From Candidatus Bathyarchaeota archaeon (GTDB lineage: Archaea; Thermoproteota; Bathyarchaeia; Bathyarchaeales; Bathycorpusculaceae): 64,000 nt of DNA. The DNA is taken from positions 2,144,001 through 2,208,000 of the forward strand of contig OY970176.1 in assembly GCA_963707955.1 (NCBI GenBank), in the 5' to 3' direction. The notes below the pieces were generated by a model. It ran no database searches and had not been told where the DNA came from. It saw only the letters and a list, made by a program, of their open reading frames with translations. A program made the position numbers and the translations under genes. This document shows positions 41,468 through 46,762 of the stretch, one piece after another. Position 1 is the stretch's first letter. The number at the start of each line of letters is the position of its first letter.

Positions 41468-41508
41468 TTTTCTCGTTTTTTGCGTTTTGTTTGCGATACG
41501 TTTTATAG
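41468..41508 (+). promoter_or_regulatory. T-rich terminator after rpl30 followed by a TATA box (TTTTATA) for hsp20
   Basis: TTTTCTCGTTTTTTGCGTTTTGTTT, then TTTTATA at 41501-41507 and a GGGGGAGG SD before TTG 41547. Confidence 0.45.
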
Positions 41509-41546
41509 TTGCTTTTCAGATGCCATGTATGCGGGGGAGGACAGAG

Positions 41547-42002
41547 TTGAGCGCGAGATGGCGGAGAAACAAAAAAAGCTTGAGAAAATTCAACATTTTC
41601 AAGGTTTTCAACAAGGTTAAAGAGAGAAGTCCTCCTAGAACGTTTCGCGTCAAGAGTTCAACTTCCAAGCGGCGCGCAGTTGCGTCCAGATACAAGGTTG
41701 AAAAGATACCTGAGGAAAAGTTGAAGGACCCCAAGCCGCTGATCGACATCGTTGAAGAAAACGACGAGATAGCAGTTTTCGCAGAGTTCGCGGGTTTCAA
41801 CAGAGAAAACCTGAGAATCAACGTTAAAAACCAGAAGCTAACCCTGTCTGCCAGGACTTCGGACCGCAAGTACTACAAAAGCTTAAATCTTCCAAAAAGA
41901 GTGATTCCCGACACTATATGCACAACGTATAAGAATGGCGTTCTCGAAATACGATTAAAAAAGGCTGTTGAAGAGAAGGCCATGAACAAAATGGCTGGTT
42001 AG
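41547..42002 (+). CDS. Hsp20/alpha-crystallin family protein with basic N-terminus
   Basis: PLIDIVEE.DEI.VFAEFAG..RENLRIN...YYKSLNLP...TYKNGVLEIRLKK. Confidence 0.85.
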   Translation: MSARWRRNKKSLRKFNIFKVFNKVKERSPPRTFRVKSSTSKRRAVASRYKVEKIPEEKLKDPKPLIDIVEENDEIAVFAEFAGFNRENLRINVKNQKLTLSARTSDRKYYKSLNLPKRVIPDTICTTYKNGVLEIRLKKAVEEKAMNKMAG

Positions 42003-42456: not shown

Positions 42457-43932
42457 ATGGCCGGTAGGTTTCTCTCGTTATTCAAGCCTATTGCAAGAGT
42501 CTTGCCAGAAGTGAAACTTCCAGAGCGCAGGGTTCGGTTCAACGAAAAAATCTTCTGGACTGGGCTCGTCCTGATAATCTTCCTAGTCATGTCAGAGGTT
42601 CCTCTCTATGGAATTCAGGCGAGCGCGCTGGGGCAGCTTGCAGCTCTGAGGATCATTTTTGCCTCGAGTCGCGGCACCCTCATGGAGCTTGGAATAGGCC
42701 CTATAGTGACTGCAGGGTTGATACTGCAGCTCCTCGCTGGCTCAAACATGATTGAATGCGACATGGGCAACGCTGAAGATAGGAGTCTGTTTACGTCAGC
42801 AAGCAAAGCGTTCACCATTGCTCTCACAGGAGTTCAAGCAGCAGCTTACATAGTCGGCGGCATGTACGGCATCTTACCTGGAACCACGGCTGTAATCGTC
42901 TTCTTGCAACTAATCTCGGCGGGAGTTGTCGTGCTATTAATGGATGAACTTGTCCAGAAAGGTTGGGGGTTCGGCAGCGGAGTAAGCCTGTTCATCATGG
43001 CCGGCGTTGCCAAGACAATTTTCTGGCAGTCCTTCTCACCTGCACCTGCCGTCGGTCAGTCGGGAGCCTACGGATTATTCGTCCAAATAGGTGCATCCCT
43101 GTCTTCAGGTCAATCGCTATCGAACCTTTGGCTTAGACAATACGTGGACACCACGGGCGCGCTAGTCTCATCAAACCCGACGCTGCTCGGCTTCGCGGTC
43201 ACGATCATCGCTTTCTTGGTGATAATCTACATGGAAGGCGTAAGAATCGAACTGCCTTTATCCTATGCTGGCTACAAGGGTTACCGTAGCAGATACCCGA
43301 TAAAGCTCTTGTACGTGTCGAACCTGCCAGTTATTTTCGCTTCCGCCTTGTTCGCTAACGTTTACTTCTTCTCGCAACTCTTCTGGAGCATGAGCGGTCA
43401 GCCAGCTGCCGGCCAAAACCCATGGCTTGACATATTAGCACAGTTCAAGGTCGTGCAACCTGCCACCGGGTCAACTGCGGCGCCAACGATAACCCCCATA
43501 GGAGGCATCGTCTACTACGTGCTGGCACCGAGCAGCTGGACAAGCGTTATGCAAGCCCCGTGGAAGGCCCTTGGTTACCTTGGAATTCTCATCGTCTTTT
43601 GCGTCATCTTCTCGCTCACCTGGCTTGAGGTCGGCGGTATAGGGCCGTCTAACGTTGCACAACAGCTCATGGATGCTGGCATGCAGATTCCAGGATACAG
43701 ACGATCAGGAAGAGCCATAGAATCGATCCTCAAGCGTTACATTCCAGCCGTCACTGTTGTCGGCGGAATACTGGTCGGACTTCTCGCAGGGCTCTCAGAC
43801 TTCTTCGGAGTCTTCGGTTCAGGGATCGGCATTCTACTTTCCGTAGGAATAATCTACCAGTACTACGAAACGCTGATGCAGGAAAGAGCAGCTGAAATGT
43901 ATCCGGCGTTCAGGCGCATATTTGGAGAATAG
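42457..43932 (+). CDS. secY: Protein translocase subunit SecY
   Basis: GTLMELGIGPIVTAG, KGWGFGSG.SLFI, YPIKLLYVSNLPVI and GMQIPG.R. Confidence 0.97.
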   Translation: MAGRFLSLFKPIARVLPEVKLPERRVRFNEKIFWTGLVLIIFLVMSEVPLYGIQASALGQLAALRIIFASSRGTLMELGIGPIVTAGLILQLLAGSNMIECDMGNAEDRSLFTSASKAFTIALTGVQAAAYIVGGMYGILPGTTAVIVFLQLISAGVVVLLMDELVQKGWGFGSGVSLFIMAGVAKTIFWQSFSPAPAVGQSGAYGLFVQIGASLSSGQSLSNLWLRQYVDTTGALVSSNPTLLGFAVTIIAFLVIIYMEGVRIELPLSYAGYKGYRSRYPIKLLYVSNLPVIFASALFANVYFFSQLFWSMSGQPAAGQNPWLDILAQFKVVQPATGSTAAPTITPIGGIVYYVLAPSSWTSVMQAPWKALGYLGILIVFCVIFSLTWLEVGGIGPSNVAQQLMDAGMQIPGYRRSGRAIESILKRYIPAVTVVGGILVGLLAGLSDFFGVFGSGIGILLSVGIIYQYYETLMQERAAEMYPAFRRIFGE

Positions 43933-43935
43933 CCC

Positions 43936-44523
43936 ATGAACAAGACGATAATCGTGACTGGAATACCTGGAACTGGAAAGACCACGATTTGCAGTTTCAT
44001 CGAGAAGCTTGCAGAAGAAGCTGGCGTTGAAGTCAGCGTGATAAACTATGGAACAGTTATGATGGAGATCCTTCACAAATCTGGGAGACCCATGGAAAGA
44101 GACGCGATGAGGATGGACAGCGTAGAAACTCAACGCAAACTGCAGAGACAAGTCGCCGAAGCAGTCGCAAAGAGAACAAGAACGTTTAACGGCCTAACAG
44201 TCATCGACACACACACGTCGATAAAGACTCCTGAAGGATATTTTCCCGGTCTCTCATGCAACAACCTGCAGCTATTGAAGCCTGAAATGCTCGTGCTCGT
44301 TGAAGTCCACCCAGGTGAAATATCTTCAAGAAGAATGAAGGATGCTGGCAGAAAAAGAGACACTTCATTAGAAGACTCTGTTAAGGAAGAGCTCACTTTT
44401 TCGCGGGCAATTGCTGGTGCATGTGCCGTTCTCATGAGTGCCCCCGTAAAAATAGTCGTCAACGCTGAGGGAAAACCTGAAGAAGCCGCGAAAGACATAC
44501 TCAGAGCTATGGGAGTTGTGTAG
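43936..44523 (+). CDS. adkA: Archaeal adenylate kinase
   Basis: TGIPGTGKTT, NYG, RD.MR, DTH and TPEGYFPGL; directly after secY. Confidence 0.93.
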   Translation: MNKTIIVTGIPGTGKTTICSFIEKLAEEAGVEVSVINYGTVMMEILHKSGRPMERDAMRMDSVETQRKLQRQVAEAVAKRTRTFNGLTVIDTHTSIKTPEGYFPGLSCNNLQLLKPEMLVLVEVHPGEISSRRMKDAGRKRDTSLEDSVKEELTFSRAIAGACAVLMSAPVKIVVNAEGKPEEAAKDILRAMGVV

Positions 44524-44525
44524 AT

Positions 44526-44732
44526 ATGATGCAAGTGTTGTTGGCGGTACTTGTTCCGACATGTCTAAATATGACCGAAGGATACAGCATTACAAACGGA
44601 GCCTTTTCTATTACATCTTCGACATCAACTTCAAATTACTATTGCTATTTTGAGACTTGCGTATGGAATACTACAGGATATCCGGCAATAGGACAAATAT
44701 ACAACGTGGCGATATCATACTATGCATATTAA
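44526..44732 (+). CDS. 68-aa hypothetical; AT-rich, probably a chimera of the original DUF106 start and a foreign gene 3' end
   Basis: Starts 2 nt after the adk stop, where DUF106 normally starts; Ser/Thr/Tyr/Asn-rich; overlaps the next ATG. Confidence 0.45.
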   Translation: MMQVLLAVLVPTCLNMTEGYSITNGAFSITSSTSTSNYYCYFETCVWNTTGYPAIGQIYNVAISYYAY

Positions 44733-45400
44733 TAAAGGAATATCAACTATCCTAATAATCTCAATTCTTGTCTTATCTTTCCTTATATATCTTGTTTCCG
44801 TATCACAAGTTAAGGCTGCTAGTGTTAATGAGGGAATATTACAAGACACAGCAGTAAACTATGGAAATCCAGCAACAAATTATGGGGATTCAGATCCATC
44901 TACTGGAGCTCTGGGGAACTTCACAATGACAGCCAATGGTACAGTATCTTTTTCTAGACTTCTATTGGATCTAAACTTTTCTGAGATAAGCCCATCATAT
45001 ACATTAGGTAATGTGACTTTGAACGTATATCAATGTTCAGATGATCCAACCACTTCTCCAGATTACTTTGACATAACTGCATATGATTTACTATCTTCAT
45101 TCAATGAAGGTACTGTTGCATGGAATACTATGCCTTCTTATAATGCAAGTCTTTATTCAAACACGATTACAATTAATGATTCCACGTCTGGATGGCAGAC
45201 TCTAAATATAACTAGTATATGCTCAGCTGTACGGACAGCAAATCCATTTAAGACTTCACAATTCACTGATATATACATAGTCTTGATTCCGTTTAACAGT
45301 AATGCTTCAGTTAGCTATATGGACAGTTTCTTGATTTATGGTCAAGACATTTCCAATTCATCACTAGCTCCATACGTTACTATAACATATACCATTCAGC
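44540..45400. mobile_element. AT-rich foreign insertion (~30-35% GC) inside the ribosomal superoperon
   Basis: Hand counts of sample 60-mers give 28-30% GC against ~50% or more in the flanks; no transposase or terminal repeats seen; boundaries approximate. Confidence 0.55.
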
Positions 45401-45870
45401 CCATATTGAAGGAGATTCCTTATTCGGCACTTTTAATACTCGGTTTAGCTTCATTGATATCGTTATTGACCACCGCTGTGAACCGTTTGCTGACAAACCC
45501 AGAGCAGACAAAATCTGTGCGAAGAGAGGTTACTGAATGGAGCAAAGAACTGCGCCAAGCGCAACGCGACAAAGACAAAAAAGCCATCGAAAAACTTATG
45601 AAAAAGCAAAGTTACATGATGCAGATTCAAACCAAGATGATGTGGCAATCGATGAAAGTGACACTGCTGTTTATTGTTCCCCTGCTCCTCATGTGGCAAG
45701 TTCTGGGTGGGTTCTACGGCGGGCGTGCCGTAGCCTATCTTCCAGGAATCGGCGCTAATCTTCCATTACCGATTTTCAGCTCTTCTCTCATCTGGTTTTA
45801 TTTGCTGTGTTCACTCCTTTTCGGTACAACTTTTTCACACGTCCTTGGTATAATTGAGGTGAGCGAGTAG
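44722..45870 (+). CDS. DUF106/EMC3/TMCO1 (Oxa1-superfamily, Ylp1-like) membrane insertase with an N-terminal signal peptide and extracellular DNRLRE/CBM96-like domain
   Basis: The C-terminal ~150 aa (TM1, coiled coil, MMWQSMK, TM2, WFYLLCS) occupy the secY-adk-DUF106-L34e-cmk slot. The N-terminal part has a signal peptide, P.TNYG, R.LL.LNFS and F.EGTV.WNT.P. Confidence 0.85.
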   Translation: MHINKGISTILIISILVLSFLIYLVSVSQVKAASVNEGILQDTAVNYGNPATNYGDSDPSTGALGNFTMTANGTVSFSRLLLDLNFSEISPSYTLGNVTLNVYQCSDDPTTSPDYFDITAYDLLSSFNEGTVAWNTMPSYNASLYSNTITINDSTSGWQTLNITSICSAVRTANPFKTSQFTDIYIVLIPFNSNASVSYMDSFLIYGQDISNSSLAPYVTITYTIQPILKEIPYSALLILGLASLISLLTTAVNRLLTNPEQTKSVRREVTEWSKELRQAQRDKDKKAIEKLMKKQSYMMQIQTKMMWQSMKVTLLFIVPLLLMWQVLGGFYGGRAVAYLPGIGANLPLPIFSSSLIWFYLLCSLLFGTTFSHVLGIIEVSE

Positions 45871-45871
45871 C

Positions 45872-46139
45872 ATGCCGAGACCTAGCGAGCGCACGCGGAG
45901 CAGAAAACGCACAACCAAACCCCTACCAGGCGGAAGAACTGGCACACAGTTCAAGTATGAGATCGCTGCTCAGTCAACCTGCAGCCGCTGCGGCCGGCAG
46001 CTAGCAGGCGTTTCAAACAGCTCTCCGAAAGCCCGGAAACTAAACCGAAGCGGAAGGAGAGTTCAGCGTGTCCACGGAGGACAGTCTCTGCCACGACTGC
46101 ATCAAGACTGCTTTGAGACAGGCTGCCAGGGCACTTTAA
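45872..46139 (+). CDS. rpl34e: 50S ribosomal protein L34e; +1 frameshift at 46085 (probable assembly error)
   Basis: MPRP..R.RS, PGG, CSRCG..L.GV; removing T46085 restores HGGQLCHDCIK..LRQAARAL*. Confidence 0.9.
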
Positions 46140-46162
46140 GCTCGAGTTTTTGAGGTAAGCAG

Positions 46163-46762
46163 ATGGCTCGGTCAAAGAAGACTGAGAGAGGGCACTCGCA
46201 GCATGTGACGATATGCGTAGGCGGAATGGCAGGAAGTGGAAAAAGCACACTGGCAAAGAAAATCGCCGAGAAATATGGGCTCAAGTATTTCTCCGGTGGA
46301 GCTGCGTTGATGGCGCTGGCTGTTGAAGAGGGGTATAGGCCTATTGAACATGGCTGGTGGGAAAGTGAAGAGGGGATGCGGTTTCTGGAAAAGAGAGGCA
46401 GAGATCCTTGGTTCGACCAGGCTGTTGACAAGAAACTCTTGCGAATAGCACAGCAGGGTAACGTGGTCCTAGACAGTTGGACCATGCCGTGGCTTCTCAA
46501 GAAGGGCTTCAAGATTTGGCTTGAGGCGTCAGCAGAAAAGAGGGCTGAAAGAGTAGCTGAAAGGGACAAGATAGGCTTCAAAGAGGCTCTTGAAGCGGTG
46601 AAACGTAAAGAGAGGCAGACAAAGATCATCTACAAGAAAATGTATGGCTTCAGTTTGGGAGACGATTATGCTCCTTTCAATTTCATCCTAGACACGGACA
46701 TTCTGAACGAGGAAGAAGTGTTTCAGATTTTGTGCATGGTATTAGAGAGTCTGGTTCTGTGA
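46163..46762 (+). CDS. cmk: Cytidylate kinase (archaeal)
   Basis: GGMAGSGKST, SGG, KIWLEAS..RAERV..RD and YG; conserved position after L34e. Confidence 0.9.
   Translation: MARSKKTERGHSQHVTICVGGMAGSGKSTLAKKIAEKYGLKYFSGGAALMALAVEEGYRPIEHGWWESEEGMRFLEKRGRDPWFDQAVDKKLLRIAQQGNVVLDSWTMPWLLKKGFKIWLEASAEKRAERVAERDKIGFKEALEAVKRKERQTKIIYKKMYGFSLGDDYAPFNFILDTDILNEEEVFQILCMVLESLVL

Follow-up and report, generated by a model that had tools for sequence, protein, structure and literature searches.

Why should a gene of the secY operon whose product is treated as a minimal membrane insertase begin with a secreted domain written in DNA of foreign composition, and what might such a domain do there? The archaeal DUF106 (Ylp1) protein is regarded as a minimal, ancestral-like Oxa1 insertase, and the described archaeal members are, in the available text of PMC6098224, minimal three-TM proteins; the form examined here has in addition a signal peptide and a 192-aa, sequon-rich folded ectodomain. 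In the open literature searched, including the accessible parts of PMC8675477, its preprint and PMC6393860, with subscription papers and supplements outside that scope, we found no description of an ectodomain-bearing archaeal DUF106, and yet a fifth of the genomes of one family break the minimal picture. The window is the whole stretch of DNA analysed, 64,000 nucleotides of a Candidatus Bathyarchaeota genome (G000) that is a single contig of 2.35 Mb, and all coordinates are positions within it.

An earlier note on this DNA had read the gene order secY-adk-DUF106-L34e-cmk from the letters alone, and Pfam bears this order out. On the forward strand, secY (42457..43932; open reading frame list and Pfam) and adk (43936..44523) are followed by a leader ORF of 68 aa (44526..44732), which starts 2 nt after the adk stop, and by the fused gene of 382 aa (44722..45870), both frames being as the note gave them, with an overlap of 11 nt; rpl34e (45872..46153; Pfam) and cmk (46163..46762; open reading frame list and Pfam) come next, also on the forward strand. 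The fused gene, likewise read on the forward strand throughout, encodes a Sec-type signal peptide (aa 1-32, 44722..44817), a complete CBM96/DNRLRE beta-sandwich (aa 33-224, 44818..45393) and the native DUF106 body (45394..45870), an EMC3/TMCO1-like core of the Oxa1 superfamily. The signal peptide that had been claimed is supported by a hydrophobic stretch at aa 7-25 in the hydropathy profile and by a small-x-small motif after the h-region, the predicted cleavage falling after V-K-A, a motif that our script finds in common among the alleles of this type.

The DUF106 body is orthodox. PF01956 (EMC3_TMCO1) matches aa 237-377 at 47.6 bits against a curated cut-off of 27.1, and it has no other match in the genome. 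Hydrophobic segments at about aa 235-253, 313-331 and 349-378 give three TMs, TM1 and TM2 being separated by a charged helical hairpin, the cytoplasmic coiled coil, in an alignment with 30 relatives. The protein thus shares with DUF106/Ylp1 (MJ0480, PDB 5C8J) the Pfam match, the three TMs, the coiled coil after TM1, the position in the secY operon, the single detected copy and the core residues, and the form in another species (G007) is labelled 'EMC3/TMCO1 family protein' by NCBI. At the 16 conserved core columns the fused protein of this genome departs from the short-form consensus twice (T236A and W359F), and E269, A280, D285, K287, W325, P341 and Y360 are retained in 59-62 of the 62 long forms of our survey; the Thr that caps TM1 is found in 100 of 105 short forms and 15 of the 62 long ones, a loss that mostly reflects a replacement in a single clade (type C, below). 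The usual length had been put at about 170-200 aa; the plain form is 166-172 aa in the nearest relatives (G001 and G010, of the same genus), though the contrast with 382 aa stands.

Alignment with these two relatives places about 844 nt between codon 7 of DUF106 and the next conserved codons, and the insert covers about 844-847 nt (44547..45393, forward strand, GC 35.3%). The earlier note was right that the change in composition is abrupt, whereas its figure of about 30% GC was too low, the insert having 35% in a genome of 47.9%. Windows of 850 nt with GC as low as this are rare (3 of 2760), and the GC3 of the ectodomain, 0.245, is lower than in any of the genome's 1322 long ORFs (minimum 0.29, median 0.55). 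Amino-acid bias does not explain this value, since 52 native ORFs rich in Ser, Thr and Asn have a median GC3 of 0.55. The proposal that foreign DNA landed in the first codons of DUF106 is therefore supported by the alignment to unfused kin and by GC and GC3. No second copy of the insert was found in the genome, and the 5-nt repeat seen at the junctions was disregarded because of its shortness. Narrow searches for a mobile element, a provirus or an archaeal intron gave no viral relatives, no genome repeats and no evident bulge-helix-bulge, and these candidates were put aside. A further AT-rich island of the same genome (G000:C1, about 1355600-1361000) also encodes secreted proteins (GC3 0.29-0.34), one of them with a PEF-type tail.

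The fusion is real. One Logan contig, from a run (X1) that is possibly the source of this DNA, spans 3.4 kb of the locus, differing by two substitutions and a single gap, and both junctions are bridged by contigs from two further samples of the study to which that run belongs, so that the chimeric assembly against which the earlier note had cautioned is not what we see. The same fusion occurs at 78-87% identity in G007, in the JGI contigs L031 and L032 and in the proteins P0003 and P0004. Comparison of the locus among related genomes accordingly gives a divided answer: the long form is found elsewhere, but it is not common to all kin, G001 and G010 being unfused.

The DNRLRE/CBM96-like motifs that had been noticed correspond to profile matches above cut-off, with CBM96 (PF24517) on aa 41-168 at 30.4 bits (cut-off 26) and the NCBIfam DNRLRE profile (NF033679) at 45.8 (cut-off 34), and the nine N-x-S/T sequons are confirmed, all within aa 66-212. 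The ectodomain comprises an entire domain, its end coinciding exactly with the junction to DUF106. Modelled from a 22-row alignment it reaches pLDDT 81, and Foldseek matches the beta-sandwich to the CBM96 structures 8WAB (TM 0.69) and 7VBO (TM 0.60); phmmer against PDB with the ectodomain gave nothing under E 0.3, and a full-length AlphaFold model from a 5-row alignment was unusable (pLDDT 39.6). Three pairs of alleles, which share sequences, give dN/dS of 0.24-0.37 for the ectodomain (Fisher p <= 1.1e-3 in all three), similar to the 0.19-0.33 of the DUF106 core, and these substitution patterns show purifying selection on the ectodomain. As there is no stop in the fused frame between ectodomain and DUF106, translation of the former would yield the fused chain. 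The founding member of CBM96 binds alginate through a Lys/Arg groove, according to the accessible part of PMC9971899; the present domain is instead acidic, with 3 Lys+Arg against 16 Asp+Glu in 192 aa, and is joined to an insertase rather than an enzyme. From this composition, binding of a polyanion seems unlikely.

The 68-aa ORF had been taken for a possible second foreign gene. It consists of the old DUF106 start and the first seven codons, reading on into the insert in a frame that differs from that of DUF106 (offset 3n+1 in all three alleles), and runs for 68, 49 and 67 aa in these alleles, which differ by indels of 60 and 3 nt; a contig from a soil run shows two further losses of 3 nt. The leader frame is open in all three variants and the other two frames are stopped, an event that shuffling assigns a chance of 0.02-0.08 per allele, the alleles not being independent. 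Its dN/dS is 0.29-0.68 (p 0.04-0.25), it belongs to no Pfam or NCBIfam family and it has no second copy in the genome. With its varying length and weak selection signal it resembles a coupling leader more than it does a real second gene. Overlaps of the -4/-1 type are common in translational coupling, and the -11/-14 overlap found here, where the leader stop lies 11 nt past the new ATG, is atypical. The old and new starts are 196 nt apart, whereas neighbouring ORFs of the operon are spaced by less than 10 nt in 10 of 13 cases, and an intergenic distance of about 20 nt nearly abolishes coupling in the part of PMC10666635 available; for these two reasons we read the leader as probably a translational-coupling bridge. 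A sigma-70 promoter scan stayed at chance level, with a model unsuited to archaea.

How often has this happened, a point that the earlier note had not raised? In the family surveyed (332 genomes, of which 315 have a DUF106 match, with all 315 open-frame lengths read and the long ones fetched), in 62 genomes DUF106 bears both a signal peptide and an ectodomain, the latter of three types, and 253 genomes do without the add-on. Type A, the CBM96 form, is found in 2 genomes; type B, IPT/TIG-like with Pfam scores under cut-off, in 16 genomes of four genera, one case (G066, where the genome has two matches and the fusion lies on a contig of 3.3 kb) being possibly contamination; and type C, of about 135 aa and no named family (best Atlas score 0.84), in 44 of the 113 genomes of one genus, where the replacement extends into the first turn of TM1. 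A metagenomic protein (P0005) supplies a fourth, Ig-like-looking domain, type D. Between the four profiles there is no detectable homology (hhalign probability below 2% in all six pairs). The signal-peptide script passes 61 of the 62 long forms, the miss lying at a contig end. The ectodomain has a median dN/dS of 0.24 in type B (2 usable pairs) and 0.30 in type C (51 usable pairs), the pairs being related and every one of them below 1. In the protein database, 56 long forms of 280-388 aa were present among 8000 scored candidates, every one of them belonging to types A-D; two of type B (P0062 and P0068) have the ectodomain in tandem duplicate (379 aa).

Trees of the core, built by a quick method, place the long forms in several positions. 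A single clade for all of them is rejected (p-AU 2e-7, 54 rows with G400 left out), as is a single clade for type B, which is patchy even within one genus (11 of 25 genomes of g69) and whose ectodomain in G207 is 66% identical to that of genus g11 while the cores are 61% identical; the type C rows tested, 20 of 20, form a single clade with support 85. Going by these trees and profiles, a single origin of the fusions is rejected, and unrelated domains have been joined to DUF106 repeatedly in this family. Some long frames were discarded: that of G311 (L035, G311:C9:1-2319) has a GC-rich DnaE-like fragment in frame with the C-terminal part of DUF106 and looks like a chimeric assembly, and those of G234, G141 and G054 are read-through without a signal.

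Outside the family, the same class offered 139 matched genomes (126 + 13) with 20 frames of at least 200 aa, all of which were read. One of them, from another order of the class (G462, L183:3057-3740), is a DUF106 with a signal peptide and a linker rich in Ser, Thr and Asn, with no evident folded domain; 18 of 19 further frames of that length, like all four frames fetched from the rest of the phylum, are read-through without a signal. Those four belong to the five frames above 230 aa in 92 matched genomes of other classes, and none of them is a fusion, the frames read excluding G568 and, in family f37, those of 206-226 aa. A profile of 20 other Thermoproteota, used as the query for long forms, retrieved none, which is weak evidence. 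In most family members examined (L005, L007-L015, L038, L040-L047, L050-L129) adk is absent between secY and DUF106, and in genera g17, g11, g23 and g88 varied genes, flavodoxin-like ones and surface proteins among them, often lie between secY and DUF106-cmk; to judge from gene order, the slot is a rearrangement hotspot. One genome (G009, L016/L144) has frameshifts in adk and DUF106 that are possibly sequencing errors.

In the trees of secY and of L34e-cmk each of the two genomes with a type A fusion groups with an unfused one, the present genome with G010 (100%) and G007 with G001 (71-80%), and unfused alleles persist in sister species. Against this flanking phylogeny stands a haplotype block without strand, reaching from the 3' end of adk to the start of TM1 (44487..45453), in which the fused alleles are set apart from the unfused ones at 17 of 23 informative sites, compared with 3 of 180 outside it, the limits having been chosen post hoc. 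Fused and unfused alleles diverge by 22-30% in the block against 7-16% in the flanks, whereas fused-fused and unfused-unfused divergence in the block is at the level of the flanks. Because the block splits the alleles against the flanking trees, both are no younger than these species and have been either sorted or exchanged through recombination. A recent sweep, suggested by the lower dS in the insert, was rejected since the ectodomains of types B and C also have low dS and GC3 and fused-fused divergence equals that of the flanks; so was the origin of G001 and G010 by clean deletion, as both keep codons shared with the outgroup G002.

We favour, at a probability of roughly one half and ahead of the four alternatives considered below, a working insertase that is routed through SecY by its new signal and carries an interchangeable glycosylated domain. 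A fragment of a foreign surface-protein locus would have landed after codon 7 of DUF106/Ylp1 and been retained. Ribosomes leaving adk would restart at the old start, translate the leader ORF of 68 aa and initiate anew at the ATG that overlaps it; the signal peptide would route the chain via SRP and SecY and be cleaved after residue 32; the CBM96 domain would fold outside and be N-glycosylated by AglB, which is present in all five genomes inspected; and TM1 would act as a stop-transfer segment, giving the normal N-out/C-in insertase of three TMs with the domain tethered to TM1. The family topology is N-out/C-in in the accessible part of PMC5868721, and with it the order of signal, domain and TM1 is coherent, as the earlier note had argued. 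What selection kept would then be generic, the signal making export of the insertase N-terminus SecY-driven and any compact glycosylated beta-domain serving as spacer or stabiliser, and such a role would explain why unrelated domains occupy the same slot in kin. The signal is the element common to all five cases (A, B, C, D and the bare linker of G462). Against a generic role, 253 of the 315 genomes do without the add-on, sister species retain unfused alleles and the bare-linker case is one genome; for archaeal DUF106 itself, direct proof of substrate insertion was lacking as of 2018 according to the text of PMC6098224 available. Tolerance and opportunity could account for part of the recurrence. 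If the domain merely rides along, the locus still documents clearly how a core housekeeping gene took up foreign DNA with operon coupling retained.

The alternative that survives best, which we hold possible though clearly the lesser prospect, is surface display: DUF106 would simply be handy as an N-out anchor within an operon that is highly expressed, selection would act on the exposed domain (in adhesion, as a glycan shield or in interaction with viruses or predators), and the fused/unfused split of the block would be a long-lived polymorphism. That split fits it, as do the patchiness of type B and the closer match of the G207 and g11 ectodomains than of their cores, and for types A, B and D the surface proteins of this genome include free-standing, C-terminally anchored relatives. 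These relatives also support a donor of surface-protein type, one of the two sources that had been suggested; for the other, a virus, a narrow search with two patterns of 7-8 residues found no relative in viral contigs. Type C has no free-standing relative in three of three genomes without the fusion, nor elsewhere in two of two with it. The best relatives of ectodomain A among 50%-cluster representatives are 25-34% identical, and a search of genome contigs with it returned only the G007 record itself; the free CBM96 protein of this genome (L033) is 23% identical and was rejected as direct donor on that ground. It has the build of the PEF-CTERM-like surface proteins of Bathyarchaeia, archaeosortase substrates that likewise combine a signal peptide, a beta-domain and a TM; here, however, TM1 of DUF106 serves as the anchor and a PEF motif is absent. 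Display is also opposed by the conservation of each type, which is not diversifying (dN/dS 0.24-0.39), by the confinement of type C to one clade within its genus, and by the presence in this genome of about 11 ordinary PEF-type anchored proteins that could show such domains.

A more specific role would rest on the likeness to YidC. Gram-negative YidC has an N-terminal signal, an extracytoplasmic beta-domain and an Oxa1 core in the same order, and to this extent the YidC-like architecture that had been proposed holds; but its domain is of the P1 fold and its core of five TMs, against CBM96 and three TMs here, and the signal of the fused protein, by its small-x-small motif, looks cleavable rather than an anchor. 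The fused protein has no match to the YidC family in Pfam and NCBIfam scans, and no YidC appears among the Foldseek matches listed. As judged from these comparisons, the likeness is loose, one of analogy and not descent, and the layout emerged several times within archaea. Lumenal beta-sandwiches also occur in EMC and NOMO and are possible counterparts of the ectodomain. We consider it unlikely that the domain is an extracytoplasmic chaperone or docking module, a convergent counterpart of P1 replacing SecDF or an EMC6-like partner. The same gene has gained domains repeatedly, SecDF was not found in any of the five genomes and EMC6_arch (PF19094, Elp1-like) has no match over cut-off in any of them; but unfused kin likewise lack matches (G001 both, G106 SecDF), one specific interface common to four unrelated domains is improbable, and P1 is absent among the Foldseek matches listed. 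The EMC6_arch profile stays under cut-off in fused and unfused genomes together (G000, G007, G001, G130 and G248) and may miss divergent members; an EMC6-like partner, described as general in archaea in the accessible part of PMC8675477, may be divergent or absent here. A correlated loss of SecDF or Elp1 with the fusion was rejected, as unfused kin look the same.

In E. coli, P1 contacts SecF and possibly substrates (PMC7618853), and the extra TM of YidC is dispensable and much of P1 deletable (PMC6098224, PMC7618853), as far as the available portions of these papers go. The role of this periplasmic domain is still unsettled, and near-identical cores with no domain, a bare signal or types A, B, C and D make it testable. 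The repeated gain of unrelated domains shows a YidC-type layout to be easy to reach and apparently worth keeping. A bolder statement, still improbable, is that a YidC/EMC-like insertase has been rebuilt in Bathyarchaeia no fewer than four times, an extracytoplasmic glycosylated beta-domain acting together with the Oxa1 core (it might serve as chaperone or ratchet, or form a link with SecY or the S-layer) in cells in which no SecDF was found; if this is true, the fused and unfused sister alleles are a natural experiment on why Oxa1 insertases across life gain lumenal domains.

It is very unlikely that the main product is short, either a normal DUF106 made from an internal start (TTG 45409) or one from which the ectodomain is cut off. 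That TTG is present in all three fused DNA alleles, with CTG in the unfused ones and, in P0004, a Met one codon earlier, and an exosortase-family gene (the 350-400-aa form) is present in this genome; however, no purine-rich motif precedes the TTG, the conserved ectodomain, once translated, necessarily continues into DUF106, and in type C the start of TM1 is itself replaced. A PEF/PGF motif at the junction is found in neither of the two type A cases nor in any of the 16 of type B, and the ectodomain thus probably remains uncut and attached to DUF106, to go by these motifs. Of the 44 type C forms, 8 show a PEF/PEL-like triplet no further than 25 aa away, and in those that were read it precedes TM1 by about 15 aa. 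Exosortase-family domains also occur in longer frames of 677-701 aa, and in one of 1802 aa (L149-L151; G007, G130 and G248).

That the insert is an artefact or an intron-like element removed from RNA is scarcely credible, for although its length of 3n+1 means that precise removal restores the old gene and at least one probable assembly indel lies nearby, independent assemblies carry the same fusion at the identities given above, the secreted domain is under purifying selection, the co-folded junctions have no evident bulge-helix-bulge, and a contig of run X5 in which the insert is skipped is consistent with an unfused relative in a run of soil DNA.

Two minor features of the operon may be added. 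Near 46085, in rpl34e, contigs of three runs are without one base that the window has, and relatives have a normal L34e end, so that the odd C-terminus of rpl34e in the window is probably an assembly indel of 1 nt. Upstream of secY, an ORF that by eye is Hsp20-like (41487-42002) interrupts the ribosomal protein operon between L30-like and L15-like genes.
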